Origin: Paracoccaceae bacterium
GTDB lineage: Bacteria > Pseudomonadota > Alphaproteobacteria > Rhodobacterales > Rhodobacteraceae
Reading direction: 5' to 3'
NCBI GenBank assembly: GCA_041397205.1
Contig: JAWKXC010000007.1
Location: 131,753-195,752, forward strand
Length of the DNA: 64,000 bases
Under the pieces are notes generated by a model that worked only from the letters and a program-made list of their open reading frames with translations, did no database searches and was not told the origin of the DNA. Positions 42,099-64,000 of this stretch are shown here, one piece after another. Made by a program: the position numbers and the translations under genes. Within the stretch, counting starts at the first letter, position 1. Each line of letters begins with the position of its first letter.

Positions 42099-42948
42099 AT
42101 GACAGACTACAGACTTACACTGAGCTGCGCCAACACGCCAGGCATCGTCGCCAAGGTCGCGGGCGCCATCGCCGCGCAAAGGCGGGAATATCACCGAGGC
42201 GCAGCAATTCGACGATCTCGCCTCTGGTCTGTTCTTCATGCGGGTCGCGTTCTCGTCGGACGCCGAACGCGCCGAGCTCGAAGGCGGCCTTCGCGCCGGT
42301 GGCAGCCGAGCATGCTATGGACCTGAACCTCACACCCGCGGACGCGCGCAAGAAAAGTGCTCGTCCTGGTCTCGAAGTTCGACCATTGCATGGGCGACCT
42401 GCTCTACCGACAGCGGATCGGCGAGGCTCAACATGGAGGTGGTCAGGATCGTCTCGAACCACCCGAGCGAGGCGCTGGCGCTCAGCACTGACGCCGGCAT
42501 CCCCTTACCACCACCTGCCGATCACAAAGGACACCAAGCCCGCGCAGGAGGCCCGGATCAAGGCAATCATCGAGGAGACCAGGGCCGAGTTTGGTGGTGT
42601 TGGCGCGCTACATGCAGGTGCTGTCGGACGACTTTTCGCGGTATCTCTCTGGCCGCTGCATCAGCATCCATCATTCCTTCCTGCCCGGCTTCAAGGGCGC
42701 GAAGCCCCTGCCACCAGGCCTATGAGCGCGGCGTGAAGATGATCGGCGCCACCGCGCATTTCGTCACTGGCGATCTCGACGAGGGCGATCATCGCCCAGG
42801 ACGTCGAGAACGTGACCACGCCGACACGCCCGACACGCTGGTCCGCAAGGGCCGCGACATCGAGCGGCGGTGCTGGCCAGGCCCGTCGCCTGGTATCTCG
42901 ACGACCACATTTCATGAACCGGACCAAGACGGTGATATTCCCGACTGA
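42099..42948 (+). CDS. purU: formyltetrahydrofolate deformylase (frameshifted)
   Basis: N-terminal ACT domain, [56 protein letters not shown]. Confidence 0.88.
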
Positions 42949-42997
42949 GCGCCGCCGACCCGCAGACTTTCAGACAACGACCGGAGAGGAGACCAAC

Positions 42998-44265
42998 ATG
43001 GCACGCATCATCGGAGGCCTCGGCGCCTCGCATTCGCCCACTATCGGGTTTGCCAAGGACACGAACAAGCACAACGACCCGGCCTGGAAGCCGATCTTCG
43101 ACGGCTTCGACGTGCTGCGCAAATGGGTGCAGGACAAGGAGATCGACGTGATTTCCTGATCTACAACGACCATGTCACCTCGTTCTGCTTCGACCACTAC
43201 CCGTTCTTCTCGCTCGGCATCGACGACACCTACCACACCGCCGACGAGGGCGGCGGCCCGCGAGATGTGGCGCCCGCGAAGGGGCATCTGGGGCTCTCGC
43301 AGCACATTGCCATGGCGCTGACGGCGGACGAGTTCGACATGTCGTTCTTCCAGGGCAAGCCGGTCGACCACGGCCTCCTGTCGCCGCTCAGCATGCTGGC
43401 CGATGCCGACGGACCCTGGCCCGGCAAGGTGGTGCCGCTGCATTGCGGGCTCCTGCAACTGCCGATCCCCTCGCCGAAGCGGATGTGGAAGCTGGGCCAG
43501 TGCTCAGGAAGGCGATCGAGAGTTACCGAGGACCTGAACGTCGCGGTGATGGCCACCGGCGGTCCTCAGCCACCAGGTGCACGGCGAACGCGCCGGGTTC
43601 ATCAATGAGGACTGGGACAACGAGTTCCTTGGTACCATCGAGACCGACCCGGAAAAGCTCGCGAACATGCGGCTCGCCGAGTATGTCGTCAAAAGGCGGC
43701 ATGGAAGGTGCCGAGGTGATCATGTGGCTCATCATGCGCGGCGCGCTGTCGGATCACGTGACGCTGAAGCACAAGACGACCTACGCCCCCTCGGTGACCA
43801 ACATCGCCACCATGATCCTCGAAGACGAGGCGCCCCCGCGACCGAGGCCGAGAGCAGGCCACCGGGAGCACATGGGCTACCATCTCGCCGGCGCCGAGAA
43901 GGTGGAGGGGCACCCATCCCACAGCCCATGCGCGCTCGCAGGCGGCGTTCCGCATCAACAGCTTCCCTGCGACCTGATCAAGCCGGAGCACGCAGGCGGT
44001 TCAAATCCGACTTCAACGCGCTGGCCGCTGAACGGGGGCTGACAGACGAGGAAATCGCGCTGATAAACGGCCGCAAATGGATCGAGATCGATCCACTACG
44101 GCGTTTCGTTTTTCATGCTGGAGAAGATGGCTGCCGTGATCGGCGTGCCGAACCCTGCCGTCTATGCCGCCTTCGCGGCGAGACGCTCGAAGAGTTCAGA
44201 AGAGCCGCAAGGTCGCCCTCACCTATGGCGTCGGCGGTGGCGACAGGCAGCTGGACGGGGCGTGA
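42998..44265 (+). CDS. gallate dioxygenase (GalA/DesB-like; frameshifted)
   Basis: MARIIGGLGASHSPTIGFA, YNDHVTSF.FDHY, ADEGGGPR, DHGLLSP, HQVHGERAGF, EGAEVIMW, plus LigA-like C-terminal domain (FFMLEKMAAV). Confidence 0.85.
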
Positions 44266-44349
44266 CACCGGACGCCCCAGCACAGTGGAAGACCGCCCTC
44301 GGGCGGCCCTGCTTGTCTACGCTGGCCAGTCGCTCTGGGCTCTGACAGG

Positions 44350-45435
44350 TCACAACCGCGTTTCGTCCCTCGCGTCGAACAGACTCGCCGCGGCCATGTC
44401 GATGCCGATCTCCATCCGGTCGCCCTCTTGCGCATTGAACTTCCCGTCAGCCCGCGCAGAACGGCTCGCCAGCGAGTTTCACCCAGATCAGGGTATCCGA
44501 TCCCATCGGCTCGACCAGGCTCGACCACGACCTCCACCTTCGTCCCGGCATCCGCGAGGTCGCGGCCTGTCAGGACGTGTTCGGGACGAAGGCCAAGGAT
44601 CACCTCGCCCGCACCCGGCATCTGGTGAACTCGTAGCCGCGAGCGGCACACGGAAGTCGCCCGACAGGAACTGGCCGTCAGCAATACGCCGCGCAAGGTG
44701 TTCATCGTCGGGCTGCCAATGAACTGCGCGACGAACAGGTTGGTCGGACGTATAGACATCGTCCGGCGTGCCGAGTTGCTGGATCTTGCCGTCCTTCATA
44801 ACGCGATCCGGTCGGCCAGTGTCATCGCCTCGACCTGGTCGTGGGTGACGTAGATGTCGTGTTGGTCGCAAGTTGCTGGTGCAACCGCTTGAGTTCGATG
44901 CGGAGCGCGCCCCGCAGTTTGGCATCGAGGTTCGACAGCGGCTCGTCGAACGGGAAGACGTCGACGTCGCGCACCAGGGCCCGTCCGATCGCCACGCGCT
45001 GCCGCTGGCCACCAGAGAGCTGCGCAGGCTTGCGGTCGAGGAACGGCGCGGTCTGGAGCACCTTGGCGGTGCGCCGCACCGCGCTCTTCGATATCCGCCT
45101 TGGGATGGCCCGCGTTGCACCTTGAACTCGAGATTGCCGCGCACGCTCATCTGCGGATAGAGCGCGTAGGACTGGAACACCATGCCGATCCCGCGCTCCG
45201 ACGGCTCGGCGGAGTCGCGTTCCGGTCGCCGATGAACACCTGGCCAGTGGTCGGGTCGGTGAGCCCGGCGATGCAGTTCAAGAGCGTGGACTTGCCGCAG
45301 CCGGACGAGCCGAGCAGGACGTAGGAACTCGCCCCGGTAGATCTCGATATTGAGATCCTTCAGCACCTCGACCGCGCCGTAATTGAGCGACAGATCGCGA
45401 GTTTCGACGGAGACCTGTTGTACGGGATGGGACAT
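44350..45435 (-). CDS. sugar ABC ATPase, MalK-type (frameshifted)
   Basis: [50 protein letters not shown]. Confidence 0.85.
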
Positions 45436-45439
45436 CGGA

Positions 45440-46369
45440 TCAGCCTTTCACGGCGCCGGCAGCGATGCCGCGCACGAAGAGTTTGCCGGAAGAAATACAC
45501 CGCGAGCGGGACGACCCGGTAATGATCGTCGCGGCCATGTTGACGTTGTATTCCCGCACGCCCAGCGAATTGACAATGTTGTTGAAATGCACCGAAATCA
45601 TCGGGTAGTTGGCGGGCGTGGTGAAGACGACGCCGAACAGGAAGTCGTTCCAGATGCCGGTGACTTGCAGGATCATGGAAACCACCGCGATCGGGATCGA
45701 GAGCGGCAGCATGATCCTGAAGAAGATCCGCCAGAACCCGGCCCCGTCGACCCGCGCTGCCTTGAAGATCTCGTCCGGCAGGCTCGCGAAGTAGTTGCGG
45801 AACAGGAGCGTGTTGATCGGCATCCCGAACAGGGTGTGCACGATCACCAGCCCCCAGAGCGACCCGTAGAGCCCGAGGCCGCTGATCAGCATCACCATCG
45901 GGTAGAGCGCGACCTGGTGCGGGATGAAGGCACCCACCAGCAGAAGCGAGAAGAAGGTCTCGGAGCCTCTGAACTTCCACTGCGCGAAAACGTAGCCGGA
46001 AAGGCTCGCAACGGCGACGGAGATGAGCACCGAGGGGACGAGGATGAACACCGAGTTGAGGAAGCCCGCCGAGAGCCCCTTGCAGGTGAGCCCGGTGCAG
46101 GCCCCGGCCCAGGCCTTGGCCCAGGGCTCGAAGGTGACCTCGACCGGCGGGGCGAAAATGTTGCCCATGCGGATTTCCGGCATACCCTTCAGCGAGGTCA
46201 CCACCATGACCCACAGCGGGATGAGGTAGTAGACCGCAAGCACGAAGAGCGTGCCGTAGAGCATGATGTTGCCCCGGGTGAGCCACTTGGTGGGTCGCGG
46301 GCCTTGCGGGCCTTCGAGTGACCGCTTGCCGCGGGGAGTGGCCGTCGGATCGAAGTCAGTGGTGTGCAT
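45440..46369 (-). CDS. carbohydrate ABC permease
   Basis: FRNYFASLPDEIFKAARVDGAG EAA loop, IWNDFLFG. Confidence 0.88.
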   Translation of the reverse strand: MHTTDFDPTATPRGKRSLEGPQGPRPTKWLTRGNIMLYGTLFVLAVYYLIPLWVMVVTSLKGMPEIRMGNIFAPPVEVTFEPWAKAWAGACTGLTCKGLSAGFLNSVFILVPSVLISVAVASLSGYVFAQWKFRGSETFFSLLLVGAFIPHQVALYPMVMLISGLGLYGSLWGLVIVHTLFGMPINTLLFRNYFASLPDEIFKAARVDGAGFWRIFFRIMLPLSIPIAVVSMILQVTGIWNDFLFGVVFTTPANYPMISVHFNNIVNSLGVREYNVNMAATIITGSSRSRCISSGKLFVRGIAAGAVKG

Positions 46370-47240
46370 TTCGCCGCTCCGCGCGTTGCATGTAGAACCA
46401 TGGGATCAGGATGATCACGACCGCGATGAGCATCACTGTCGACGCGGCAAAGGCCTGGCCGAGGTTCTGCGAGGTGAACATCGCGTCGATCACGTATTTT
46501 GCGGGCACCTCCGACGAGCCCCCGGGGCCGCCGTTGGTCATGGCAACAACGAGGTCATACATCTTCACGATGTTGACGCCGGTCATCACTACCGCTGTCG
46601 CGATCGCCGGCTTCATCATCGGCAACACGATCCGGATGTAGACCTTCCACGCCGGGATACCGTCGATCCTGGTCGCTTTCCAGATCTCGCCGTCGATCCC
46701 ACGGAGCCCGGCCAGCATCACCACCATGTTGAGCCCCGTCCCCTGCCATAGCCCGGCGGCGATGATGCCGAAAATGACGATGTTTTGGTTGAAAAGCGGG
46801 TCGAAGGCGAAGCTCTCCCACCCAAGCCCGCGCACCACCGACTGGATGCCCAGGTCGGGGTTGAGGATCCATTGCCAGGCCAACCCGACGACAATGAAAG
46901 AAAGTGCGAACGGGTAGAGGAAGATCGTCCTGAGTATGCCCTCGCCGCGGATTTTCTGGTCGAGGAGCGTTGCGAGGAAGAAGCCGAAAGTGAGCGACAG
47001 CACCATCACGAACAGCCCGTAGATGGCGATGTTCTCGATCGCCACATACCACTTGTGGGTGCTCCACAGGCGTTCGTATTGGGCGAGCCCAACCCAGCTC
47101 TCGCGCGGCAGCAGCTTCGAATTGGTGAAGGAATAGACGATCGTCAGAGCGTGCAGCCGATGGTCACGACCAGCACCTTGATCATCACCGGCAGCGCCGC
47201 GGTGCGCTGAGATCTTCAGTCTTTTGATCCTGCGATCGAC
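46356..47240 (-). CDS. carbohydrate ABC permease (start uncertain)
   Basis: WVGLAQY, LRTIFLYP, LAGLRGID.EIWKATRIDG, MTNGGPG. Confidence 0.8.
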   Translation of the reverse strand, partial: VDRRIKRLKISAHRGAAGDDQGAGRDHRLHALTIVYSFTNSKLLPRESWVGLAQYERLWSTHKWYVAIENIAIYGLFVMVLSLTFGFFLATLLDQKIRGEGILRTIFLYPFALSFIVVGLAWQWILNPDLGIQSVVRGLGWESFAFDPLFNQNIVIFGIIAAGLWQGTGLNMVVMLAGLRGIDGEIWKATRIDGIPAWKVYIRIVLPMMKPAIATAVVMTGVNIVKMYDLVVAMTNGGPGGSSEVPAKYVIDAMFTSQNLGQAFAASTVMLIAVVIILIPWFYMQRAERRNAHH

Positions 47241-47289
47241 GAGAATAATCCTGCGGACGCGGACGGCCGGGCCGTTCGCGTTGGAGGTG

Positions 47290-47315
47290 TCCCCGCGGCG
47301 CAAGGGCCGCGGGGA
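47290..47315 (-). other. stem-loop after binding-protein gene
   Basis: tccccgcggc-gcaagg-gccgcgggga. Confidence 0.45.
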
Positions 47316-47328
47316 GCCGGTCGTTGGC

Positions 47329-48564
47329 TTACTCGGCCTGCTCGATGATCGACGCAAACTCTTCCTGCGCCGCCTCGGCCGACATGCTGTCGTCAGCGAG
47401 GAAGCGGGAGGCGAGATCACGCAGAGAGGCCAGCGTATCGGCGGTCACGTATTGCTCGACGCCGGGGATGATGTTGCCCGCGGCGAGGATCTCGAGGCCC
47501 TTCTGCATGCAGGCGTTCGCGCTATCCATGTTGATGTCGCCGCGCACCGGCAGCGAACCCTTGGCGAGGTTGAAGCCCACCTGCGCTTCCGGCGAGATCA
47601 TCACCGAGGCCAGTTCGAGCTGGGCTGCCGAGGCCTCCTCGTCGTCGAGCACCGGGAAATAGAAGGCGTTGCCGCCGGTGTTGACGATCGGGTTGACGCC
47701 GAGGCCGGGAAGGCATTCGTAGTCGGTGCCTGCCGTCTGGCCGGCAACGGCAAACTCCGCCTGCGCCCAGTCGCCCATGATCTGGCCACCGGCCTTGCCG
47801 GTGATGACCAGGTTAGTCGCCTCGTTCCAGCCACCGACATTGGAGCCGGCAGAGAGCTCGCGCACGTTGGCGAGCGCCTGGAACATCTCGGCGACCTTGG
47901 GCCCGCGCACGACGTCCATGTCGCGGTCGCCGTAGATCGTCTTGTAGAGCTCGGGTCCACCGAGCGACCCGATGATCGTGTTGAACGTGAGGTAGTGCTG
48001 GAACCCATCGTTGCCCATCGCCATCGGCACAAGGCCGGCCTCGCGCAGCGCGGGTGCTGCGGCGACGAACGCGTTCCAGTCGGTGGGCACGTCAACGCCG
48101 GCCGCGTCGTAGGCCGCGTGCGACAGCCACATCCACTGCTGCGAATGGATGTTGGTCGGCACACAGTAGATCTTGCCGTCGTAGGTGCAGGCATCGAGCA
48201 GCGAAGCGGGCTGGACGAGGTCCGCCCAGCCTTCTTCCTCGGCAAGTTCGGTGAGATCGCGCATCAGGCCGGCTTCGACGAGTTCCTCGGCCTGGCGGCC
48301 ATGAACCATGACGGTAGCCCCCATCGGGTTGCCACCGACGATCCGGCTGATGATCGCGGGGATCGCGGTGCCGCCGCCGCCGGCGATGGCGCCATCGACC
48401 CAGGTGTTGCCGGTCGAGTTGAAGGCGTCCGCAAAGGCGCCCAGCGCGGCAGCTTCGCCGGCCGAGGTCCACCAATGGGTCACTTCCAGCTCCGCGGCCA
48501 TCGCCGATCCGGTGATCCCGCCGACGAGGGCCGTGGTGGCGGCCAGGTAAGTCAGTCGTTTCAT
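47329..48564 (-). CDS. carbohydrate ABC substrate-binding protein (glucose/GtsA-like)
   Basis: Signal peptide, EVTHWWTSAGEAAA, PTNIH, QIMGDWA, FNLAKGSLPVR. Confidence 0.88.
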   Translation of the reverse strand: MKRLTYLAATTALVGGITGSAMAAELEVTHWWTSAGEAAALGAFADAFNSTGNTWVDGAIAGGGGTAIPAIISRIVGGNPMGATVMVHGRQAEELVEAGLMRDLTELAEEEGWADLVQPASLLDACTYDGKIYCVPTNIHSQQWMWLSHAAYDAAGVDVPTDWNAFVAAAPALREAGLVPMAMGNDGFQHYLTFNTIIGSLGGPELYKTIYGDRDMDVVRGPKVAEMFQALANVRELSAGSNVGGWNEATNLVITGKAGGQIMGDWAQAEFAVAGQTAGTDYECLPGLGVNPIVNTGGNAFYFPVLDDEEASAAQLELASVMISPEAQVGFNLAKGSLPVRGDINMDSANACMQKGLEILAAGNIIPGVEQYVTADTLASLRDLASRFLADDSMSAEAAQEEFASIIEQAE

Positions 48565-48801: not shown

Positions 48802-50085
48802 TCAATTGAACATCGACTGCGGAATCAGCAGCGCGATCTCGGGGACCGCGACGATCAGCAACAGGCAAACCAGCATCGCGATCCAGAACGGCAACACACC
48901 GCGGAAGATGTCGAGCATCGGCACATCGGCCGCCACGCCCTTGACGACGAACACGTTCAAACCGACCGGTGGCGTGATCATCCCCATCTCGATCACGATC
49001 ACCGCGATCACGCCGAACCAGATCGGGTCGAAGCCCATCGCCGTCACGATCGGGAAGAAGATCGGGATCGTGACGACCAGCATGGCGAGCCCGTCGAGGA
49101 ACATGCCGAGCACGAGGTAAGCGACGACGATCATCGCCAGCACGCCGTAGGGGCCGAAGCCCGCGGAGGTCATCGCCTGAGGCCGGCAGGTGGGTGAGCG
49201 CGAGGGAATGGGTTCAGCACGTTCGCGCCGATCACGATCAGGAACAACATCGCGGTGGTGCGCACGGTGTCGGCGGTGCCTCGCCTTGATCGTTGCCCGT
49301 CGAGCTTGCGGGCGATCGCCGCCATGACGATGACCAGGGCCGCGCCGACGCCCGCCGCTTCGACCGGGGTGAAGACGCCAAGGTAGATGCCACCGATCGA
49401 AGCAACGATGACGATCACGAGCGGCAATGCGCCGGCAGCGCCGCGAGCTTCTCGAACGACGTCCGCTTGCCGCGCGGGCCCATCTCCAGGTTCACCAGCG
49501 TGGCCAGCAGGATCGTCGCCATGAACAGCGCAGTCAGAAGCAGGCCCGGCAGGATCCCCGCCATGAACAGCTGGCCGATGCTCTCCTCTGTAAGGATCGC
49601 GTAGAGCACGAAACCGGTCGAGGGTGGGATCGAGTAAGCGTGCCGCCCGCCGCAATGGCGCCTGTGGCGAGACGGTCCGAATAGCCGAAGCGCTTCATCT
49701 CCAGCAAGGCCACCCGGCCGATGGTGACGGCGGTCGCCACCGACGAGCCGCTCACCGCCGCGAAGGCAGCGCAGTAACGCAGAGAAGCCGTCGCCAGCCC
49801 GCCGCGGAACGCATGCCGACCAAGCGAAAGCGGCATCGTGAAGCTGCGGCTGAACCCCGGCGGCCGAGGCGATGTTGCCCATGAGGATGAACAGGGGCAC
49901 GACGGTCAGCAGTAGTTGGTGGCCGAATAAGTTTCGGTCATCAGGGCGTCGGCCGAGCGTGCGCCGTTCATCACCCAGGTGCCGAAGTAGCCGACGACCA
50001 GCATCGCCATGCCGACGGGCATCCGGAAGATCATCAGCCAGAACATGGCCACGAGGCCGGTGACACCGATCATCGCATCAGACAT
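48802..50085 (-). CDS. TRAP large permease DctM (frameshifted)
   Basis: PLFILMG, SGSSVATA, IPPS, FTPVEAAG, GFDPIWFG, ITPPVGLN. Confidence 0.85.
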
Positions 50086-50533
50086 GGTCGTGCGCACTCC
50101 CCTGCCGAGCCGGTCGATGGCCTGGAGGACGAGCACGGCGCATAGAGCGCCGCCCCCAGCACGATGAGCCCGTAGAAAGGCCAGAGCGGGATCGACAGCA
50201 TGTTGGTTGCATCGCCGAACTCCAACGCGTCGCCGGCTTGTCTCCACGACCGGAGCGCAAGCTTGACCAGCACGAAGACGGCGAGACCCCGGGTCAACAC
50301 GTCGCCCGCGAAGCGTCCCCAGGCGCCGATAGCCTCGTCCAGCACGTCGACCCGGATATGGATCTCGCGCTGCGCCGTCGGGCCGAGCGAGCGTCACAAG
50401 CGACCGAGGCAAGCTGTGATCTCGTTGCTGCCGAGAAGCGGGTGAGCATGTACAGGATCACGCTCACCGCCGTGGTCGCCAGGAGCACGGCCAGCGCGAC
50501 GGTCGCGGCAGTGTCAGGTAGCGGACGGCCCAT
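50082..50533 (-). CDS. TRAP small permease DctQ (frameshifted)
   Basis: Hydrophobic, HIRVDVL, LSIPLWPFY; between DctP and DctM. Confidence 0.7.
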
Positions 50534-50588
50534 TCAACGGGTGCGGAACGGGCCATCCCGGCGACCGCTTTGCCACGGTCGCCTGCGG

Positions 50589-51575
50589 TCATTTCTGGAG
50601 CGCCTCGACGTATGCGGTCGCTTCCAGGCCCTCGGCATCGGCCTCAGCGAGGACGGCCTTGGTCACCTCGTCGGACGCGGCGTCAAACTTCGCCGCTTCT
50701 TCCGGAGAGAGCGTGATGACCTCCTTGCCCTCGGTGGCCGCGAAGGCTTCGAGGTTGGCCGCCGCGCCGCCGAGCTGCACCGCGTTGGCAGCCTTGGAAG
50801 CCTTCTTTCCGGCCTCGAGAACAGCAGCCTGCGCCTCGTCCGACAGGTCCGCGAAGCTGTCGCGGTTCATGACGAGGAAGAAGCTCGACACCGTCGGGTT
50901 CATGCCCTCGACGACGTATTTGGTCACCTCGGCGAGTTTGAAGGTGCGCAGTGTCGTCGCGTCGATCATCGCGCCGTCGATCACGCCGGTCTGCATCGAG
51001 TTGTAGATCTCCGGCGCCGGCATCGAAACCGGGGTTGCGCCCCAGGCCTCGACGATGAGACCGGCGTTGCGCGACGGCACCCGGATCTTGAGACCGGCCA
51101 ATTCATCGAGGGAACGCACCGGCTTTTCGGCCATCAGCAGCAGGTTCGGCGCGTTGTTCCAAAGCCCGAGCAGGGCCACCCTGCGATACTCGCCCGACAG
51201 CATGTCGATATTGGCCAGCACCTTTTCGGTGCCGGTGTCGGCGTCGATAACGCCCGGCAGCTCAGTGAGCAGGGTCTTGGGGAAGTTCGCCGCGGTGTAG
51301 CCGGGCAGGCTGAAGGCGATGTCGGCCACGCCGTTGACGGCACGGTTGTATTGCTCGGCCGGGCCCGGGCCCAATTCACCGCCCATGAACACCGTCACGG
51401 TGACGTCGCCGTTCGTCGCCGCAGCGATCTCGTCGGCGAAAGGCGCATAGACCTTTTCGACATAGGGGTGCGTCGCCGGCTGGAAGTCGGCGAGCTTGAG
51501 CTCGGTGGCCTGCGCCGCCACGGCGGTCAGGCCCGCGGCCAGAGCGAGGCCGATGGTTTTCAGTTTCAGGTTCAT
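50589..51575 (-). CDS. TRAP substrate-binding protein DctP
   Basis: Signal peptide, GGELG, GVADIA, LAGLKIRVP, EIYNSMQTGVIDG. Confidence 0.9.
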   Translation of the reverse strand: MNLKLKTIGLALAAGLTAVAAQATELKLADFQPATHPYVEKVYAPFADEIAAATNGDVTVTVFMGGELGPGPAEQYNRAVNGVADIAFSLPGYTAANFPKTLLTELPGVIDADTGTEKVLANIDMLSGEYRRVALLGLWNNAPNLLLMAEKPVRSLDELAGLKIRVPSRNAGLIVEAWGATPVSMPAPEIYNSMQTGVIDGAMIDATTLRTFKLAEVTKYVVEGMNPTVSSFFLVMNRDSFADLSDEAQAAVLEAGKKASKAANAVQLGGAAANLEAFAATEGKEVITLSPEEAAKFDAASDEVTKAVLAEADAEGLEATAYVEALQK

Positions 51576-52970: not shown

Positions 52971-53121
52971 TAAAAATCCTCCCATGGGGTCGTTTGGGAG
53001 ACCTTAGGCAAGCCGGCCGGCGCCGGCTCATTCAGAATCCGAATTGCCACGTTCAGTTTTGCCATGCCGACCCGAACGGGTTATAACAGATCGAGCGGGA
53101 TGGCTCAGGAGCGGCTATATC

Positions 53122-54445: not shown

Positions 54446-55024
54446 ATGTATCGCGTCAGGCTGTATTCGATCGCGAAATCGCGGCGGATGGAATGGATCT
54501 ACAGACGGCTCGAAGACCTGCTGGTCTCGCTCGACCCGATGTTCACCCGCATCGGCTACAACCGTCTGGAACGCCCCTTCGCTTTCGTCGAGCGCCACCT
54601 CAAGGGGTTCTTCTTCGACTGCAAAATGTGCGGCCAATGCGTGCTGTCGTCCACGGGAATGTCCTGCCCGATGAACTGCCCGAAACAGCTGCGCAACGGC
54701 CCCTGCGGCGGCGTGCGCCCGGGCGGGTTCTGCGAGGTGAAGCCCGAGATGCGCTGTGTCTGGGCGCTCGCCTGGGACGGCGCGACGCGGATGCGCGACG
54801 GCGACCGGATCAAGGCGGTGCTACCGCCGGTCGACCGACAACTCCAAGGCTCGTCGGCCTGGCTGCGCGCAAGCCGCGAAAAGGCGGCGCATCTGAAGGA
54901 GGCCCGCGAGGCCGAGCGTTCGGCCCTGGCCCAAGCCTTCCCGAAGGCCCGTGAAAACGAGCCCGCCTCGGCACCGCTCGCGGAAGAACCCGCGCGCGCA
55001 ACCCAGAACGGAGGCCGGTCATGA
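54446..55024 (+). CDS. MTHFR C-terminal-domain (MetV-like) Cys-rich protein
   Basis: CKMCGQC, CPMNCPKQLRNGPCGG, CEV....CVW; ATGA overlap with metF. Confidence 0.88.
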   Translation: MYRVRLYSIAKSRRMEWIYRRLEDLLVSLDPMFTRIGYNRLERPFAFVERHLKGFFFDCKMCGQCVLSSTGMSCPMNCPKQLRNGPCGGVRPGGFCEVKPEMRCVWALAWDGATRMRDGDRIKAVLPPVDRQLQGSSAWLRASREKAAHLKEAREAERSALAQAFPKARENEPASAPLAEEPARATQNGGRS

Positions 55025-55998
55025 GCCTGTTTCTGAGCGACCCGAACGCGATCCGCCCCTACGAGGAACCACCCGAGGGCATGGTCTCTGGCAGCCTGCT
55101 CGAACGCGCGTTGCGCGCGGGGCATTTCGCTGTCACTTCCGAGCTCAACCCGCCCGACAGTGCTGACCCGGAGGATGTATTCGCCGCCGCGGAGCCGCTC
55201 GCCGCGGTCACCGACGCGATCAATGCCACCGACGCGTCCGGCGCCAATTGCCATATGTCGTCGATCGGCATCTGCGGGCTGCTGACCCGGCGCGGCCTCG
55301 GCACCGTCTACCAGATCTCGTGCCGAGATCGGAACCGGATCGCCATCCAGGGCGACGTGCTGGGCGCGGCCGCGATGGGCGTGCGCAACGTCCTCTGCCT
55401 CACAGGCGACGACGTCGGCGCCGGCGACCAACCGGGGGCGAAGCCGGTGTTCGACCTCGACAGCGTGAGCACCATCCGCACCATCCGCACGATGCGCGAC
55501 GAGGGCGTTTTTCTCTCGGGTCGCAAGATCACCAAGCCGCCGCACCTGTTCATCGGGGCGGCCGAAAACCCCTGCGTCGACCCGGTCGAATGGCGTCCCG
55601 AACGGCTCGCCAAGAAGGTCGAGGCCGGCGCCGAGTTCATCCAGACCAACTACATCTTCGACATGCCCCGCTTCGAAGCCTTCATGACCCGCGTCCGCGA
55701 TCTCGGGCTCGACAGGAAGGTCTACATCCTCGCCGGCGTCGGACCCCTTGCCTCCGGCAAGGCCGCCCGCTGGATGCGGTCGAATGTGCCCGGCATCCAC
55801 ATCCCCGATGCCGTGATCGAACGGATGGAAAAGGCCGAAAAGCCCGGCGACGAGGGGCGCAAGATCTGCGTCGAGCTCATCCAACAGATTCGCGAGATCG
55901 CCGGGGTCGCCGGCGTGCACATCATGGCCTACCGTCGCGAGCACCTGGTGGCGGACATTGTCGAAGAAGCGGGGATCGGTCGCGACCAGCGCGCCTGA
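55021..55998 (+). CDS. metF: methylenetetrahydrofolate reductase
   Basis: SELNPP, NATD, CRDRNR, LCLTGD, KKVEAGAEFIQT, GVHIM. Confidence 0.9.
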   Translation: MSLFLSDPNAIRPYEEPPEGMVSGSLLERALRAGHFAVTSELNPPDSADPEDVFAAAEPLAAVTDAINATDASGANCHMSSIGICGLLTRRGLGTVYQISCRDRNRIAIQGDVLGAAAMGVRNVLCLTGDDVGAGDQPGAKPVFDLDSVSTIRTIRTMRDEGVFLSGRKITKPPHLFIGAAENPCVDPVEWRPERLAKKVEAGAEFIQTNYIFDMPRFEAFMTRVRDLGLDRKVYILAGVGPLASGKAARWMRSNVPGIHIPDAVIERMEKAEKPGDEGRKICVELIQQIREIAGVAGVHIMAYRREHLVADIVEEAGIGRDQRA

Positions 55999-56115: not shown

Positions 56116-57089
56116 TCAGTCGCACTGCGGCTTGTAGATGTAGTCGGCGTTTGCCGCGTCATCGACGTTGTCGGCGGTCAGCAGGCGCTGCGGGATGCCG
56201 ACGAACTCGTCGCTCGCCGGGACCGCACCGGTGTTGCCGGCCTGGAGGTAGTCGACGATCGCCTGAACCGATTCCGCGCCGATCTGCGCGGGCGACTGGG
56301 CGATCAGCGCGGTGATGACACCTTCTTTCAGCCCGTCGATCTCCGGCGGCACCGCGTCGAAGGCAACTACGGTGACCTGACCCGCGAGGCCCGCGGCTTT
56401 CACGGCCGCCGCTGCACCAATGCCATCGGGCCCGTTCGAGGCGACGATCAGCTTCAGGTCCGGGTTGGCGATCAGAGCCGCGGAGACCGCGGAGGTTGCC
56501 GCGTTGACGTCGAAGAAGGAGTAGATGCGCTCAAGCTCGGTGAACCCCGGCCGTGCCGCGAGCACCGCGTCGACCATCGGCACGTAGCGCATTTCGAGCG
56601 GGGAAGGCCTTGGACGCCGCCGAGCACCAGCATTGTGCCTTCCTCGTCCGGGATCATCGGCAGCAGCTCGTCGATGTAGGGCGCCGTGTCGCCCGAAGAC
56701 CATACGATGCGGTATTGTGCGGCCGGGTCGGTGCCGTTGCCGGTGACGACCGGCACGCCATTCGCCATCAACTCGCCGAACTGGGTGACGAACTGGTTGG
56801 GCGCGGTAGAAGTGCCGAAGAGGCCGTCGGGCTGCGACAGGATGGCCGCGTCGAAGGCGGCGGTCATCTGGGCCGCGTCCATGTTCGGGATCGAGTAGAG
56901 TTCAAGCGTCGCGCCGAGCTCTTTGGCCCGCGCATCCGCGCCGCAGCCGATCGAGGTCCAGAACGGGTCCTGGGTGTTGATCAGCACGCCCGCGATAGTG
57001 ATGTCGTCCTGGGCCAGGGCGACGGAGCTGGCGCCCGACAGGAGCATGGCCAAGGCCGTGCCCAGCATGGTCTTTCCGGTAGCTTTCAT
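56116..57089 (-). CDS. ribose-type (CUT2) ABC substrate-binding protein (frameshift near 56600)
   Basis: Signal peptide, DPFWTSIGCGA, VVAFDA, ALIAQSP. Confidence 0.8.
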
Positions 57090-57197
57090 GGTTCTCTCCC
57101 TTGTAGTTCCGCGGCCCAATCACGGACCGCCTGTGGCGTTTGATTCAGGCTGCGCCGGTCGCCAGCCGGCGCAGGTATTCCTTGGGCCTGGGCCCGT

Positions 57198-58232
57198 TCA
57201 ACTTGCCTCGCGGCGGTTGAAGCTCACCCGGTCGAGCCCGACGGCGATGACGAGGATCGCGCCGACGGCCATCAGCTGGTAGGCCGAAGAGACGCCGATG
57301 ATGACGAGGCCGTTCTGGAGGATCACCGCCAGGGCTACGCCCCATATCGTGCCGATGATCGAGATCCGGCCGCCTTCCATCAGCGTGCCGCCGATCACGA
57401 CCGCGGCGACAGCCTGGAGTGCATCGTTCGCATGCCCAGTGATGACCGTGGTCTGGTAGCGGGCGATGTCGATGAAGCCCGCAAGTCCTGCGAGAACCCC
57501 GGTCAGCACGAAGAGGCTGAACAGGTGCCGCTCCACCCGAAGCCCCACCCGCTCGGCGGCCAGTTTCGACGAGCCGATGGCGAGCGTATGGCGGCCGTAG
57601 GCGGTTTCGTGGATGACCAGCGCAAGGATGCCCGCGATGACCAAAGCGACGAGGGCCGGTGCCGGCATGAAACCGAAGGTCTTCAGACCGAAATGCGACT
57701 GGAGCTCGATCGGGAAGCCGATGACGTTCTGGCCGTTGTTCGACACCACCAGCGCGACACCGCTGCCGACTCCGAGCATCCCGAGAGTGGCGATCAGCGA
57801 GTTGATCTGGAACCGGGCGACCAGCACGCCGTTGATCGCGCCCATGATCGCACCCGTGGCGAGACAGCCGATGAGCCCCGCAAAGATCGTGACGCCAACA
57901 CCGGCACCCGACGATTTGAGACCGACCATGATCAGAGCACCGATCACGGAAGAGAGCACGAGGTTGGCGCCAAGCGAGAGGTCGAACTTGCCGGCGCCGA
58001 GCAGCATGGCGAGGCCGAGCGAGAGCAGCAGCATCTCGGTCCCGCTCAGGAGCAGGGATTTCAGGTTCAGCACCGAGAGGAAAACCCCGTTGCGCGACAG
58101 CGACGTGAACAGGATGACCAGAACGATGTCGAGCAGGAAGATCCAGGTCGCCCGCGACGACATCAGGCGCTGCAAAGGGCTCTTCGTCCGGGCGCGCGTA
58201 TCGACGGGCGCGGTGTTTGTCGTGGCGGTCAT
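57198..58232 (-). CDS. CUT2 ABC permease
   Basis: FDLSLG, IATLGM, YGRHTLAIGS, AAVVIGGT. Confidence 0.88.
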   Translation of the reverse strand: MTATTNTAPVDTRARTKSPLQRLMSSRATWIFLLDIVLVILFTSLSRNGVFLSVLNLKSLLLSGTEMLLLSLGLAMLLGAGKFDLSLGANLVLSSVIGALIMVGLKSSGAGVGVTIFAGLIGCLATGAIMGAINGVLVARFQINSLIATLGMLGVGSGVALVVSNNGQNVIGFPIELQSHFGLKTFGFMPAPALVALVIAGILALVIHETAYGRHTLAIGSSKLAAERVGLRVERHLFSLFVLTGVLAGLAGFIDIARYQTTVITGHANDALQAVAAVVIGGTLMEGGRISIIGTIWGVALAVILQNGLVIIGVSSAYQLMAVGAILVIAVGLDRVSFNRREAS

Positions 58233-59026
58233 CAGGCGGCCTCGTTCACTTTGTGGCCGACCATCGTCGCCCCAAGGTCGGGAACTGTGAGATCTTTCGC
58301 AGGCGCGTTCAGCACCGTGCGTCCGTGCCAGAGCACGACCACGCGGTCGGCAACCTCGAGGACGCTGGGCAGGTCGTGGCTCACGAGCAGGACACCGAGC
58401 CCCCGGTTCGCCACCGTCCGCATGAGATCGCAGACGATCCCCGACTGCTTGGCAGCGAGCGCCGCGGTGGGTTCGTCGAGCAGCACGGCGGTCGACGACC
58501 ACATTACCGCGCGAGCGATGGCCACCGCCTGTCGCTGTCCGCCGGAGAGTTCGCGCACCGGGACCGTCAGCGACGGAAGCGCGATGGACAGCTCGCGCAG
58601 TGCGGCGTCGGCCTGTTCGGTCATCTGCCGCTTGTTCAGCATGCCGAGGCTGCCGAGCACACCGCTGCGCCGGGTTTCGTGTCCGAGGAAGACGTTCTCG
58701 ACGGTGGAAAGGTCCGGCGCCATGGCGAGGTCCTGGTGCACTGTATCCACCCCGAGGCCCTGGGCGTCGCGCACGGACGACATGGTGACTTCTTTGCCGT
58801 CGATGATAACCCGGCCGGCATCGGGGCGGTGGATCCCCTGGAGCACCCGGAGAAAGGTGGATTTGCCCGCGCCGTTGTCGCCGCAAAGGGCGACGATCTC
58901 GCCGCGATGAACGGAGATCGAAGCGTCGCGGAGCGCAGTGACGTGACCGAATTGCTTTTTGACGTGCTCCGCCCCGATGGCGATCGCGTTGCCGTTTCCG
59001 GGCGCCGTAGTCGAGGTATCGTTCAT
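58232..59026 (-). CDS. CUT2 ABC ATP-binding protein (single domain)
   Basis: GDNGAGKST, LSGGQRQAVAIAR, LDEPTAAL, SHD. Confidence 0.9.
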   Translation of the reverse strand: MNDTSTTAPGNGNAIAIGAEHVKKQFGHVTALRDASISVHRGEIVALCGDNGAGKSTFLRVLQGIHRPDAGRVIIDGKEVTMSSVRDAQGLGVDTVHQDLAMAPDLSTVENVFLGHETRRSGVLGSLGMLNKRQMTEQADAALRELSIALPSLTVPVRELSGGQRQAVAIARAVMWSSTAVLLDEPTAALAAKQSGIVCDLMRTVANRGLGVLLVSHDLPSVLEVADRVVVLWHGRTVLNAPAKDLTVPDLGATMVGHKVNEAA

Positions 59027-59479
59027 GTTCCCATGTGTCCCGTTGTCTCGCGTGACTCAGTCAAGTCGCCACCCATCCATGCCCCTGTCCGGAGCGCCGC
59101 GCGCGGAGGTGAGGAGAGACAGGCCTGCCCAAGCCGCGTGTGCCCTGGCATCGCCGACAGACGCTCCTCCCATGCGCTGCCTTCCGGTCGTTCTATCAGG
59201 CGGCGCCCCGACCGGCTCATGCAATCTACAAATGGAATGCTGCATCGTCGTTATATCGTCGGGTCAGCGACAATCGTCTCGCGGTCTCGGTGCCGGGATT
59301 GTCGGTCGAGCGGATGGTTGTTTGCTGCCCGGAACTGGACCAGCGCCGATGCCCGGAGAGGTTTGACGGAACATGCAGCGCCATGACGGAACCGTAGCGA
59401 CGGACCAGCAATAGACAGGCGTTGTTGAGACGAGGCGCGTTTGCCCCTAACGTGATGCAAACACGGGAAATGTTGCTCG

Positions 59480-60684
59480 ATGCCACGTGCGAAAACCTCA
59501 ATAGATATTCGCGATCTGGTTGGCGTGGCAGAAACTGCGGCCCAGCGCAGTTTCACGGTCGCAGCCGATCAGCTGAACACGACCCAGTCGACCCTCTCCC
59601 GTCAGGTCGCGAGAATCGAGAACGAGCTGAGCGTCACCGTTTTTCGCCGTGGTTGGTCCGGCACCGAAACGACACGCGAGGGCGATCTCGTCTGCCAGCA
59701 CGCGCGCGCCATCCGGACCCTGCTCGCCGCTGCCGAAGGGCGTCTGTATTCCGCGACCGACAAGCACCCGAGGTTCGAGACAAGCCTGACCCTGGCACAG
59801 CTCGAGATCGTGGATGCCGTTCGCCGAACGAGAGGCGCGACGGCCGCCGGGAACGAACTTGGCCGCAACCAGTCATCCGTCAGCCGATCGCTCAGCGACC
59901 TCCAGCAACACCTTGGGCTCACGCTGTTCTCGAGATCCACGCGCGGCCTCGAACCGTTGCCGGCAGCGCTGGAGTTTTGCGACCTGTTCGAGCGCATTTC
60001 CAGGGTGATCGAAACCCTTCGTGCCCAGTTGAAACGCGAGCAAGGCGAGCTTGCCGGCCGCGTGGCCATTGGCATCCTGCCGTTCTCTGCTCAGGGGATC
60101 GTCGCCCGCGCCTTCGCCCAGATCAGCGAGCGCCACCCCAGGCCCGGTTGGTGCTGGTCCCGGGCACCTATCCCAGCTTCGTCCGGGCCCTGCGTCAGGG
60201 CGAAATCGAAGGCGTGATCGGGATCATGCGAAAGGACATGTGCCCGCATGACCTCGTCGAGACCCCGCTTCTGGAAGAGCGCTTCACCATCGTCGCCCGC
60301 GCCGATCATCCCGTTCACGCAACGGCGCGCACAATCAAGGACCTCGCGGATGTTCGTTGGCTGGTTCCGCCTCACGGCAGCCCGGTGCGCGCGTTCATCG
60401 AACGGGTCTTCGTCGAGCACGAGATCACGCCGCACCTGCAAACCTGCGAGATTCAGCAATTCACGGCGGTGGAACAGATGATCGCGAACAGCAACGCCGT
60501 CGGCATCCAGAGCTACAGCCAACGGGGGCTGAAGATGCTCCGCCCGGACCTCAGGCCACTCGACATCTCGCTGCCCGTGGACCCTGCAATGATCGGGCTG
60601 ACCACCTGGCAGGGCATGCAGGACGAGCCGATCTTCGAAGAGTTCCGCACCGTCGTAAAGAAACTCGCGGCCGAGCTCGGTTGA
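59480..60684 (+). CDS. second tandem-HTH LysR (GalR-like) regulator (frameshift near 60140)
   Basis: SFTVAADQLNTTQSTLSR and GATAAGNELGRNQSSVSR; shares RGWSG, GRV.IG.LPF, ARADHP, PHG.PVR, QTCE with 53122-54329. Confidence 0.85.
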
Positions 60685-60969
60685 CAGCTCCCGGTTCAGC
60701 GAAGGCGTGGAGGACGGCTATCTATGCCGCGCCCGCAAACATTCGTGCAAAAACAGAATAGCCCGCTGCGTCTATGTCATATCGCCTTCTCGACCGCGGA
60801 ATGCTCGCTTAGTCAGATCGAGCGGGGGTCACACGATCCCGGGCGGTCCGGCCTCCTGTGTGGGAGGCCCCTCCGCCAAGATAGGGACGTCACGGCTCTG
60901 CACACGGCACGGCGCGTCGATCCAAGACGTCATTGTGTCCGCATGGGTTCGAAAGGGAGGTGGACGAAC

Positions 60970-61440
60970 ATGTTCGACAGGTTTTTCGTGCGCGAGGACA
61001 GTCTCGTGAACGACATCGAGAACGGCGAGGTCGTCGGCTTCTCGCTCGCCGTTCGCAACGCGAACTACCGCGGCGTCTACCTCTCGCTGCACAATGGCTA
61101 CTACCTTTCGATCGACGGGGTCGAATATGGTCGAGACGTCCAGACCTTCGAGATCAACGGCGCGGCCCCGCGTGACTTCGAAGAGATCAAGACCGCCGTC
61201 CATGAGCACTGGGACTACGACGACGAGGGGATCCTGCATGTGCGCAAGCCGGGGGGGCTGGCCCCGGGTGAGCATAACCTGCGCATCCAGCAATCCGTTC
61301 TCGCCGCCTATGGCTACCGTCCAACCGACGAGGAATGGGTCAGGAACCCGCCCGTGCCGGGGTCTGGCGCCGGGTCGGACAAGGCGCCCGACATCTCGGA
61401 GTTCACCCTGACGCTCAGCGATGAGGAGCCGACCCGATGA
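60970..61440 (+). CDS. C-glycoside deglycosidase beta subunit (DUF6379-like)
   Basis: MFD..., GFSLAVR.ANYRGVYLS, HWDY, KPGGLAPGEH; GGAGG RBS; ATGA overlap with alpha subunit. Confidence 0.85.
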   Translation: MFDRFFVREDSLVNDIENGEVVGFSLAVRNANYRGVYLSLHNGYYLSIDGVEYGRDVQTFEINGAAPRDFEEIKTAVHEHWDYDDEGILHVRKPGGLAPGEHNLRIQQSVLAAYGYRPTDEEWVRNPPVPGSGAGSDKAPDISEFTLTLSDEEPTR

Positions 61441-62553
61441 GCATCAAGCGTGGCGTTTCGCTCTACAGCTACCAGCAGTCGCAGTTCTTCAAGGAGCTCA
61501 TGCTCGACGACCAGATCGCCGAGGTGGGCAGCATCCCCGGCTGTGAGGGGATCGAGATCGTCGACGAAATGTCGCTGCGCTACCCGGATCCGGGCGCCGA
61601 GTTCATCGACCATTGGTTCGCGATGATGGAACGCCACGGCACCGTCCCGGTGGCCATGGATGTGGGCATGGACGTGCTCCAGTTCCGCGACCACGTGATG
61701 ACCATCGAGGAAAACGCCGAACGTCTGCGCCACGACATCCGGTTGGCGAAGCGTCTCGGGTTCACCAACGTCCGAGTGCTCTCGACGACCCCGCTCGAGG
61801 TGATACTGGGGCGCTCGGCGAGGCCGAAAAGCACGATATCCGGCTCGGCAAGGAGGTCCACCAGCCTATGGCCCTCGAAGGCCCGCAGGTAACCGAGATC
61901 CTCGACCACGCGGCGCGCACCGGCACCATGCATCTCGGCATCGTCCCCGACCTCGGCATCTACCAGTATCGACCCTCGGAGGCGCTCTTGAAGTGGTTCG
62001 AGCGCAAGGGGGCAAAGTCCGAGGCCACCGCCGCTGCGACCCGGCTGTCGGAGCCTGATCCGCGCCGGCGAGATGGGCGACACGTTCGACGTCTCGCTGC
62101 ACACCGCGGGCAACATCCGCTCGGATTTCCGTCGGTTCCTTACCAGCGGCGAGGCTCCCGACATCTGCGCCGCCGCGTTCGAAGGCATCCGGGCGTTCAC
62201 AAATGAACACGTGCCGACACCGGCCGAAGTCGACTACCTGGTCGTCGGCGAAGCGCTGACCTCTCGAAAACCTCGCCCGAAACGCTCCGGCAGATGGCGG
62301 GCCACGTCACCCACGTGCACGCCAAGTTCTACGAAATGTCGGAGATTGACGGCCAGCCGGGAGTGTTCCACGACCGCTCGATCGACACCGCCGCGGCCAT
62401 GGGCGCGCTCAGGGCGGGCGGGTTCTCTCGGGCTACGTCAACTCGGAATACGAGGGCCAGCGCTACTACCAGGATCGGACCCGGGCCGACCTGATGAGCG
62501 AGGTCGACCAGGTGCGCAAGCATCAGTCGATGCTGGCACGGCTGTTGGGCTGA
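61437..62553 (+). CDS. C-glycoside deglycosidase alpha subunit (xylose-isomerase-like TIM barrel; frameshifted)
   Basis: IKRGVSLYSYQ, GKEVH, GIVPDLG, HVHAKFYEM, NSEYEGQR, EVDQVRKHQ.ML. Confidence 0.85.
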
Positions 62554-62564
62554 GGGTGAGAGAC

Positions 62565-63737
62565 ATGTGGGCGCTGGTCGGAAGCTATTCCTCGGACGAC
62601 ACTCCGGGCGGGTTAACCGCCTTCCGGTTCGACGCGGAGGCAGGGACGCTGGAACACGTGGGCCGCGCCGACCGTGACCTTGAGGCGGGCTACCTCGTCT
62701 TCGACCCGGCGACGGCCACGCTCTACGCGGTCGATGAGCGCAAGACCGACGGCCGCGGCCCGGTCGGTCCCGCTGCCGCCGTTCACGCCTTCGGATTCAA
62801 TGCCTCCACCGGCGCGCTCGCCTGGCGCAACAGCCATGTCGCCCCGGGGCCGTTCCCGACTTTCCTCGATTACGACGCAGGCCGGAACCTGCTCGTCAGC
62901 GCGAGCCACGGCAGCTTCGACCATGTCGAGCGCGTCGTGCAGGACGCGGCCGGCAATTGGACGGTCGAATACATTTACGACGCCTCCACCGTGGCCCTGT
63001 ATCGGTTGGCGAACGCTGGCGGGATCGCCGGACTTGCCGACGTCGTCGTCCTCGACGGCCACGGGCTCGACCCGAATGCCTCGCCCCAAGCAGGTGGTCA
63101 TGCCCAGTCCACGGCCCATGCCCATTGCGCCACGCTCGATCCGTCCGGCACCTGGCTCGTTGTCTGCGACAAGGGCACCGATACGATCCTCACCTACCGG
63201 ATGGGGGACCGGCTGGAGCGCGCCTCCCGCTACCAGTTCCCGCCCGAGACCGCGCCGCGCCACGTCGCCTTCACCGCCGACAGCACGCGGATGTTCGTCA
63301 CGCTGGAACTCGCCTCGGGCCTCGCTTCAATGGGATTCGACCCGGAGACCGGCGAGCTGACCCTGATCGACCGGGTTTCGGCCACCGACGGCGACTGCGG
63401 CCGGGTAAACGAACCGGCCGAGCTGCGCCTGCATCCGAACGAGCGCTTCGTCTACCTCAACAACCGCGGCGAGGACTCGCTCGCGTGGTTCTCGGTCGCA
63501 CCGGACGGGACGCTCACCCGCGAGGGGCACGTCTGCGTCGCGGCGTCGATCCACCCAGGGCTGGCCGCGCGCAACTTCATGTTCGCGACCTCCGGCCGGT
63601 TCCTGCTGTTCGCGGATCGCCCTGCCGACTGCATCCGCATCTATGCCGTCGACCCCGAGACAGGCACGCCGACCGAAGTCGGTCAGGCGCCGGTCTCGCA
63701 GCCTGCCTACGTCGCCATCGTGGAGGACAAAGAATGA
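62565..63737 (+). CDS. lactonase, 6-phosphogluconolactonase-type beta-propeller
   Basis: VGSYS, LYAVDE, AHAHCA..DPSG, DKGTD, PRHVAF, FVYLNNRGEDSL, ARNF. Confidence 0.85.
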   Translation: MWALVGSYSSDDTPGGLTAFRFDAEAGTLEHVGRADRDLEAGYLVFDPATATLYAVDERKTDGRGPVGPAAAVHAFGFNASTGALAWRNSHVAPGPFPTFLDYDAGRNLLVSASHGSFDHVERVVQDAAGNWTVEYIYDASTVALYRLANAGGIAGLADVVVLDGHGLDPNASPQAGGHAQSTAHAHCATLDPSGTWLVVCDKGTDTILTYRMGDRLERASRYQFPPETAPRHVAFTADSTRMFVTLELASGLASMGFDPETGELTLIDRVSATDGDCGRVNEPAELRLHPNERFVYLNNRGEDSLAWFSVAPDGTLTREGHVCVAASIHPGLAARNFMFATSGRFLLFADRPADCIRIYAVDPETGTPTEVGQAPVSQPAYVAIVEDKE

Positions 63738-64000
63738 CCGCCCCGCAATTCGACGCCATCGTCGTCGGCTCCGGCGCCTCCGGCAGCTTCGCCGCGAAGG
63801 AACTTACCGAGCGGGGCCTCAAGGTCGCACTGATCGAGGCCGGCCGCACGATCGGACCCGAGGATTTCGCCAACGCCCCGAAAGGACCGGTCGAAAAGGG
63901 CATCCAGCTGCCGAAGCGCGCCATCGCGACGCTCCTCGGCCAGCCGGTGCAGGCCAAGGTCGCGATGTATGGCCACCAGTTTCGACACCTCTTCGTCAAC
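63734..64000 (+). CDS. GMC-family FAD oxidoreductase, N-terminus (runs off window)
   Basis: MTAPQFDAIVVGSGASGSFAAKELTERGLKVALIEAG; ATGA overlap with lactonase. Confidence 0.85.
   Translation, partial: MTAPQFDAIVVGSGASGSFAAKELTERGLKVALIEAGRTIGPEDFANAPKGPVEKGIQLPKRAIATLLGQPVQAKVAMYGHQFRHLFVN

Follow-up and report, generated by a model that had tools for sequence, protein, structure and literature searches.

Which compound is degraded by a group of genes that places a C-deglycosidase (CGD) beside an aryl O-demethylase and a gallate dioxygenase? The question is raised by a 64,000-nucleotide stretch of DNA from a Paracoccaceae bacterium, here called the window (GenBank assembly GCA_041397205.1, contig JAWKXC010000007.1, positions 131,753 to 195,752 of the forward strand), which is part of contig C7 in the source genome (G000, 68.9% complete). 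An earlier note on this DNA had proposed that positions 42099-64000 hold a catabolic cluster for bergenin-type lactones, and all the gene families that it listed are present, as detected by Pfam on 35 window frames and, for CGD alpha, through the intact ortholog in locus L003. We consider it probable, at about 0.65, that the cluster degrades bergenin, described in excerpts of PMC11053098 as the lactone of 4-O-methylgallate 2-C-glucoside; the substrate, the para-specificity of demethylation and the order of steps are those that we infer from gene content and co-occurrence. An O-methylgallate C-glycoside lactone is the likely substrate class, with bergenin as its obvious natural example, because the deglycosylation half and the demethylation and gallate half of the gene set recur together through unrelated demethylases and dioxygenases, and this linkage is absent beside other CGD clades.

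The C-deglycosidase operon

Four genes on the forward strand close the cluster. CGD beta (60970-61440) is intact and matches PF19906 with 111 bits (cut-off 27.6), CGD alpha, a TIM barrel (61437-62553), has four frame breaks, and a seven-bladed beta-propeller lactonase of family PF10282 (62565-63737) is intact and scores 219 bits in Pfam. The GMC oxidoreductase named by the earlier note is present from 63734 by its Pfam FAD-binding GMC domain, although the gene runs past the end of the window at 64000; its intact 554-residue frame ends at the window equivalent of 65398. Because ATGA overlaps join CGD beta to alpha and the lactonase to the GMC gene, with 11 bases between alpha and the lactonase, these genes are one four-gene operon.

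None of 60 relatives has CGD beta and, of 400 genomes from the class, just 1 does; more distant orthologs therefore serve as intact references. The window CGD alpha has no Pfam match and takes its identity from the L003 ortholog, to which its pieces are 62-83% identical and which matches eight CGD chains in the PDB (top 8QVC, E=6.6e-53). With 8QVC and 9M3B as alignment references, none of the seven residues for metal binding and catalysis is missing from the window pieces, where they fall within the EVH, PD, HAK and EYE motifs, namely E147, D179, H269, K271 and E305 for the metal and H149 and E307 for catalysis (AgCGD2 numbering; residue list from excerpts of PMC8563793). In a FastTree phylogeny of every second module locus (41 rows) and 90 other CGD alphas, with groups set by hidden Markov model score, the module alphas make up a single branch, separate from the other 90 with 99% Shimodaira-Hasegawa-like support. 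The beta subunit carries a clade-specific C-terminal loop (residues ~112-140) that is near-invariant in 32 homologs and has no counterpart in solved beta subunits. Since excerpts of PMC8563793 assign a beta-subunit loop in the same region a role in shaping the aglycone site, a smaller aglycone pocket may reasonably be predicted for this clade.

Known CGD systems (DgpA-B/C, DfgA/B, CarA-B/C and AgCGD1/2; excerpts of PMC8563793; PDB 7EXZ, 7EXB, 7DNN, 8QVC and 9M3B) share with this clade the adjacent alpha and beta genes, the seven residues, a putative partner sugar oxidoreductase and, in most loci, Gfo/IolE-like sugar salvage. Unlike them, the clade possesses the extra conserved beta loop, a lactonase in every aerobic locus (defined below) and linkage to O-demethylation and gallate cleavage, and a monocyclic benzoate is its predicted substrate whereas the substrates in those excerpts are polycyclic. 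In the window the usual Gfo/IolE-like pair is not found; an IolE-like gene (59-69% identity) is located on contig C11 of G000.

The PDB matches of the lactonase are gluconolactonase-family proteins (E 1e-25 to 1e-6), its His/Arg/Glu/Arg motif positions align with PpgL and 3FGB, its scores lie far under the 6-phosphogluconolactonase equivalog cut-offs, and the ESM Atlas returns generic lactonase clusters only; we consider it likely to open an aryl lactone. The GMC protein is 72-75% identical to those of L002 and L003 and likely a glycoside 3-oxidase. Like CarA, PsG3Ox, ScPOx and GlycDH (excerpts of PMC10628242), it is a GMC flavoprotein adjoining a keto-glycoside eliminase. It differs in that the ortholog is only distantly related to the CarA-type oxidases 7DVE and 7QF8 (E ~1e-12) and nearest the FAD glucose/fructose dehydrogenases, without their Fe-S Cys cluster, and no small or cytochrome subunit recurs among the annotated neighbours of window-type GMC genes.

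Recurrence of the module across genomes

A GTDB scan with the beta-subunit alignment confirmed 166 loci, and the figures that follow come from the best 80 of these 166. A lactonase lies within 10 kb in 47 of the 80, a window-type GMC gene in 31 and a pyranose-oxidase-like GMC gene in 5. We refer to the 36 GMC loci together with L039, which is cut by a contig end, as aerobic loci (n=37). All 37 have a lactonase within 10 kb, and in 28 of them whole-genome searches place an O-demethylase on the contig of the module, no more than 25 kb away (17 of the LigM family and 11 Rieske enzymes, never both). PurU and FolD are present in most LigM-linked loci. In L064 the demethylase stands between the module and another CGD locus. 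Many module loci also hold gallate/4-oxalomesaconate genes, with ring cleavage represented either by GalA or by a VOC-fold dioxygenase accompanied by GalB/C/D-type genes. Where GalA is absent, this VOC-fold, catechol 2,3-dioxygenase-like enzyme (L005:2537-3499, L002:17780-18817, L080:18714-19685 and L175:7698-8669) is a candidate second type of gallate dioxygenase.

The co-occurrence of the modules in other genomes, which the earlier note had offered as a check on its proposal, is borne out: Alpha-, Beta- and Gammaproteobacteria and Actinomycetota all include loci where the two halves lie together, and no such pairing is seen next to other CGD clades. The control comprised 60 stretches of at most 20 kb around PF19906 matches, sampled without bias from Sphingomonadaceae, Microbacteriaceae and the class. 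Two belonged to the module clade, namely L111, with lactonase, GMC and demethylase, and L131, which ends at a contig edge. The remaining 58 have no lactonase, LigM, GalA, PrpF, RraA or PIG-L match at E 1e-6; four have a distant Rieske match (at most 195 bits vs 515-750) and 14 a distant VOC match (at most 202 bits vs >500). Within 10 kb, 16 of the 37 aerobic loci have a demethylase match, against no LigM match and the four distant Rieske matches in the 58 controls. This comparison is limited by profiles that derive from the module loci themselves, by controls many of which adjoin one another in a single cluster, and by the non-independence of kin. Sugar-salvage genes are common in the controls (Gfo 27/58, IolE-like 24/58).

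The clade's beta subunit is carried by three of 72,556 plasmids. Pantoea piersonii p174224 and Novosphingobium resinovorum pSA2 encode a complete route to the 4-oxalomesaconate enzymes (GalB/C/D or LigJ/K/U), with no gallate dioxygenase annotated in the displayed Pantoea stretch; the third plasmid, from Niallia, carries a Bacillota-type module. A methyl-accepting chemotaxis protein is encoded inside the Pantoea cluster (L162:5566-6921), between a LysR and the Rieske demethylase gene. The Rubellimicrobium cluster holds a tannase B, fitting galloyl-bergenins.

Bacillota loci have two Gfo enzymes in place of the GMC protein and mostly no ring-cleavage genes. Thirteen of them encode an Amidohydro_2 protein (for example L031:5779-6540) and none of these a lactonase, just as the 47 lactonase loci have no amidohydrolase, while about 20 further loci have neither in range; the amidohydrolase is a candidate non-homologous second lactonase. 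In one anaerobe, a Spirochaetaceae locus, a corrinoid methyltransferase set lies beside the module. At L042:16587-19028 and in 22 other loci the Bacillota module comes with an AraC regulator that has a fused GH39-like domain, and a beta subunit of the clade (73% identical, P0076) is recorded from Listeria monocytogenes. A sister alpha branch in gut Bacillota (L055, L067, L071-L074 and L077) has neither lactonase nor amidohydrolase nearby, with thiolase-like genes in two loci, and may act on another substrate.

The O-demethylase and the predicted pathway

The tetrahydrofolate (THF)-dependent aryl O-demethylase gene of the window (51598-52970, reverse strand, a single frameshift near 52632) encodes a protein 80-86% identical to that of L002, which matches LigM (5TL4) with E=8.5e-137. 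The full-length match, the equivalents of LigM Tyr247, His60 and Arg122 and the neighbouring one-carbon (C1) THF genes place it in the LigM/DesA-like family. The LigM/DesA-type label of the earlier note thus stands for the family and not for either enzyme, as the L002 protein falls under both equivalog cut-offs (541 bits vs 580 for LigM, NF047885; 579 vs 800 for DesA, NF047633). Six other linked enzymes do likewise (513-549 and 548-586), as does the LigM-family enzyme of L005. At the position of LigM Tyr31 the window enzyme has Phe, as do all 16 full-length linked enzymes, and at that of Asn250 it has Ala, as do all 17 linked rows; in the 37-row demethylase tree, the nine rows of the LigM/DesA clade all keep Tyr31 and Asn250.

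Genomes G063 and G888 carry a true LigM and a true DesA elsewhere besides the linked enzyme. Because these coexist, a substrate other than vanillate, 3-O-methylgallate and syringate best explains the third paralog, and with gallate as the end product 4-O-methylgallate would therefore remain; the aglycone is likely an O-methylgallate without meta-methylation. Compared with LigM/DesA, MetF/C1 and DesB/GalA of Sphingobium sp. SYK-6, the cluster shares the fold, the Tyr247/His60/Arg122 set, THF-recycling neighbours and a gene of gallate dioxygenase type, and differs in its equivalog scores, in the changes Tyr31 to Phe and Asn250 to Ala, in its coexistence with LigM and DesA in two genomes and in its coupling to a deglycosylation operon.

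All 11 strong matches to the linked Rieske subfamily lie within 17 kb of the module (52 genomes searched). In 10 of 80 metagenome loci (L215, L216, L219, L222, L223, L226, L227, L233, L258 and L282) the subfamily stands upstream of another Rieske oxygenase-reductase pair, distinct from it and with a VanA-like N-terminus, and in six of the ten a protocatechuate 4,5-dioxygenase-like pair lies between them. This arrangement hints at complementary regiospecificity, and such sets possibly combine para and meta demethylases for veratrate-type acids. The linked Rieske enzyme was not confirmed as IvaA, the isovanillate para O-demethylase of Comamonas testosteroni, no IvaA name occurring among the 120 matches listed (IvaA and VanA are treated in excerpts of PMC3746432 and PMC9867520).

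Genes for C1 recycling flank the demethylase. MetV-like (54446-55024) and MetF-like (55021-55998) genes, intact on the forward strand, match Pfam DUF5981 and MTHFR above cut-off and are 71% and 85% identical to those of L003. At the left end of the cluster purU, for formyl-THF deformylase (42099-42948, forward, ATG at 42099, Pfam Formyl_trans_N, at least four frameshifts), yields pieces with matches in the L033 PurU, a protein that passes TIGR00655. It is followed by galA, for a fused LigB-LigA gallate dioxygenase of GalA/DesB type (42998-44260, forward, about eight frameshifts, end approximate). The window galA is too frameshifted for whole scoring, but contig C5 holds an intact paralog, sharing 58-94% identity with its pieces, that scores 696 against PRK13367 (cut-off 412); linked gallate dioxygenases in L052, L064 and L075 score 684-731. 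On C5 this paralog is followed by dctPQM in a unit (G000:C5:63561-68900; L289:8487-13923) close to the galA and TRAP genes of the window. Two further frameshifted LigM-family demethylases flank a TRAP transporter at G000:C6:123800-130450 (L288), and a similar pair occurs without CGD in the same-genus genomes G001 and G007.

Three transporters and two regulators complete the cluster. A CUT2 sugar ABC importer (ATPase, permease and binding protein; 56116-59026, reverse, one frameshift in the binding protein) is likely the glycoside importer, with close homologs of its ATPase and permease (52-82%) beside the module in 7 of the 80 loci. The TRAP transporter (48802-51575, reverse; dctP intact, dctQ and dctM frameshifted) is likely to serve aromatic-acid uptake. 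The third is a CUT1 sugar ABC importer (44350-48564, reverse), with a binding protein (47329-48564), permeases (46356-47212 and 45440-46369) and a frameshifted MalK-like ATPase. The CUT1 importer (66-78% identity) and dctP (70%) adjoin the module in L003 too. All three were found by Pfam, as were both LysR regulators, each with two helix-turn-helix domains and one frameshift on the forward strand. The first (53100-54329, start approximate) is divergent from the demethylase and 60% identical to its L002 and L003 orthologs, and the second (59480-60684; HTH_1 twice and LysR_substrate; frameshift near 60138) is 60-64% identical to L002.

On this gene content, the CUT2 importer (MFS in most other loci) would take up the glycoside and the GMC enzyme would oxidize glucose C3. 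The lactonase would hydrolyze the ester of the aryl carboxyl with glucose O2, whether ahead of oxidation, following it or even once cleavage has taken place, and the Mn-type CGD would eliminate the aryl group to give 4-O-methylgallate and a 3-keto-glycal, which IolE-like and Gfo enzymes would convert back to glucose. The demethylase would transfer the para methyl group to THF, with MetVF and PurU recycling the C1 unit, and GalA would cleave gallate to 4-oxalomesaconate. The step-for-step match that the earlier note had drawn fits the gene set, but the steps may follow another order, as lactone opening need not come first because a gut enzyme, D3DgpA, yields oxo-bergenin from intact bergenin (excerpts of PMC11239390). 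A distinct CGD clade is to be expected for bergenin because the puerarin cleaver Dorea sp. MRG-IFC3 leaves bergenin unconverted (excerpts of PMC10772555).

We found no gene cluster for bergenin breakdown in the literature, in agreement with the earlier note, in a search whose coverage left out most subscription journals; the locus tables of PMC8563793 might list the clade. Excerpts of the bergenin review PMC10046151 gave no match for microbial degradation terms.

Bacterial breakage of bergenin's C-glucosyl bond was reportedly described by Hattori et al. in 1989 (Phytochemistry 28:1289), a work cited in PMC10539306 and known to us by its title; it would be the reaction predicted here, and genes for it were not found in the literature.

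Several observations weigh against the bergenin reading. Nine of the 37 aerobic loci have no linked demethylase (L009, which has a close demethylase homolog on a separate contig, and L010, L035, L036, L037, L057, L063, L069 and L078). Phe31 and Ala250 also occur in several unlinked paralogs, and the linked demethylases are not a single clade, linkage requiring six changes on the tree. Demethylases 75-78% identical to that of the window occur without CGD beta in three genomes of one genus (two of them with the adjoining LysR), and of the 24 long metagenome loci that represent the Rieske subfamily, a single one holds the module. The characterized PF10282 relatives that we found all act on sugar lactones. 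Elsewhere than in the window, the CUT1 importer and TRAP transporter accompany the module in L003 only, and G000, at 68.9% completeness, has no PrpF, GalB, LigJ or good GalC homolog; it likewise gives no match to a glucokinase query. A role of the linked demethylases in the module alone is rejected, since they occur without CGD beta in the three genomes and mostly unlinked in metagenomes; they are therefore general tools that the module recruited and not unique parts of it. To this extent the cluster proposed by the earlier note is qualified, while co-occurrence supports an O-methylgallate C-glycoside lactone as its substrate.

Alternative readings and implications

The alternative that survives best, though we regard it as unlikely, is another methoxylated hydroxybenzoate glycoside with the CGD as a beta-eliminase: a methylgallate or syringate O-glucoside, a methylated ellagic-acid glycoside, or a di- or tri-O-methyl norbergenin. 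CGDs also cleave 3-keto O-glycosides (excerpts of PMC10628242), co-occurrence demonstrates only a methoxy group and gallate as end product, and a GH3 gene lies within the N. resinovorum cluster. The lactonase, present in all the aerobic loci, would find no lactone in a simple O-glucoside; ellagic substrates need biaryl-cleavage genes, of which there are none among the annotated recurring neighbours; and syringate and 3-O-methylgallate are already served by DesA and LigM in G063 and G888.

Somewhat less probable still, at odds that we would call long, is that the halves are separate, with a CGD operon for the sugar of some other, unknown C-glycoside, a lactonase for a sugar lactone, and a demethylase and gallate unit for lignin monomers in a shared island. 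The demethylase units without CGD beta, the mostly unlinked Rieske subfamily in metagenomes and the duplication of the window galA and TRAP genes on C5 favour such a separation, as do mobile-element traces upstream. An IS21-like istA/istB remnant, frameshifted and assigned by its motifs, lies immediately upstream of the cluster (38900-41330), and a stretch of lower GC content (56-60% vs 63-67%; 25900-38500) after an open reading frame that is integrase-like by a motif (25903-27396) suggests a mobile island to the left of the cluster. Against this, distant taxa show the linkage through two demethylase families and two dioxygenase folds, unrelated in each case; other CGD clades of the same families lack it despite having the same sugar-salvage genes; and it includes every strong Rieske-subfamily match in the genomes searched.

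It is similarly improbable that the window copy is a decaying pseudogene cluster, whatever the function of its clade. About ten cluster genes are broken by frameshifts, a feature absent from the earlier note (purU, galA, the CUT1 ATPase, dctM, dctQ, the demethylase, both LysR genes, the CUT2 binding protein and CGD alpha), the breaks at 42-50 kb are far denser than the G000 mean of 0.2 per kb, and galA has its intact paralog on C5. Yet frameshifts are genome-wide in G000: among 238 open reading frames from 400 kb of a same-genus genome, 116 have clear orthologs in G000, and 21 of these are frameshifted, including core genes that we take by their sequence to be DNA polymerase I and RpoH. Indels separate the window at 12 places from near-identical short-read contigs (97% likeness) that come from a single study with two wastewater runs. 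The 12 include the frame breaks in the first LysR gene (53281), CGD alpha (62054) and galA (44089 and 44173); the contig over the LysR gene is of the same strain, and neither it nor the one over CGD alpha has any substitution. The catalytic residues of CGD alpha are also intact. Assembly error is thus the likely cause of the frameshifts, though not established for each break because the contigs have a depth of 2-4 and most breaks are uncovered. RNA run X3 matched the window in short, divergent pieces only and is evidence neither way.

A methoxylated flavone or xanthone C-glycoside with ring fragments passing to vanillate or syringate can be set aside as very improbable, for although characterized CGDs act on flavonoid, xanthone or anthraquinone C-glycosides (excerpts of PMC8563793), genes for flavonoid ring fission are not among the recurring annotated neighbours, the nameable dioxygenases are gallate-type (PRK13367) and not protocatechuate-type, and the lactonase is left unexplained.

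The C-deglycosylation pathway itself is known; what is new is a CGD clade of its own, fixed to a lactonase, that has been joined time and again to O-demethylation and gallate cleavage. A broader claim, which we favour by a small degree, is that bacterial breakdown of bergenin has its genetic basis in this clade, including recruited para-demethylases and a gut version. No earlier C-deglycosidase would then have had a monocyclic benzoate C-glucoside lactone as its substrate, and the clade enzyme would act with an aryl-lactone hydrolase; para-specific O-demethylases would have been recruited several times (LigM-family, Rieske and corrinoid), and the sugar-only version of gut Bacillota would release 4-O-methylgallate from bergenin, a clinically used antitussive (excerpts of PMC11053098). 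The cluster names candidate enzymes for a C-C cleavage of bergenin that has been in print since 1989, and cultured, sequenced strains that bear the module exist (N. resinovorum SA1, R. thermophilum DSM 16684 and A. sacchari DSM 44468). Gut Bacillota, for example Mitsuokella multacida DSM 20544, are among such strains, a point of relevance to drug metabolism. If the bergenin reading is true, C-deglycosidase chemistry would extend to a small benzoate lactone, a PF10282 enzyme would have a non-sugar lactone as its substrate, and the para-selective O-demethylases would be useful for lignin-derived aromatics.

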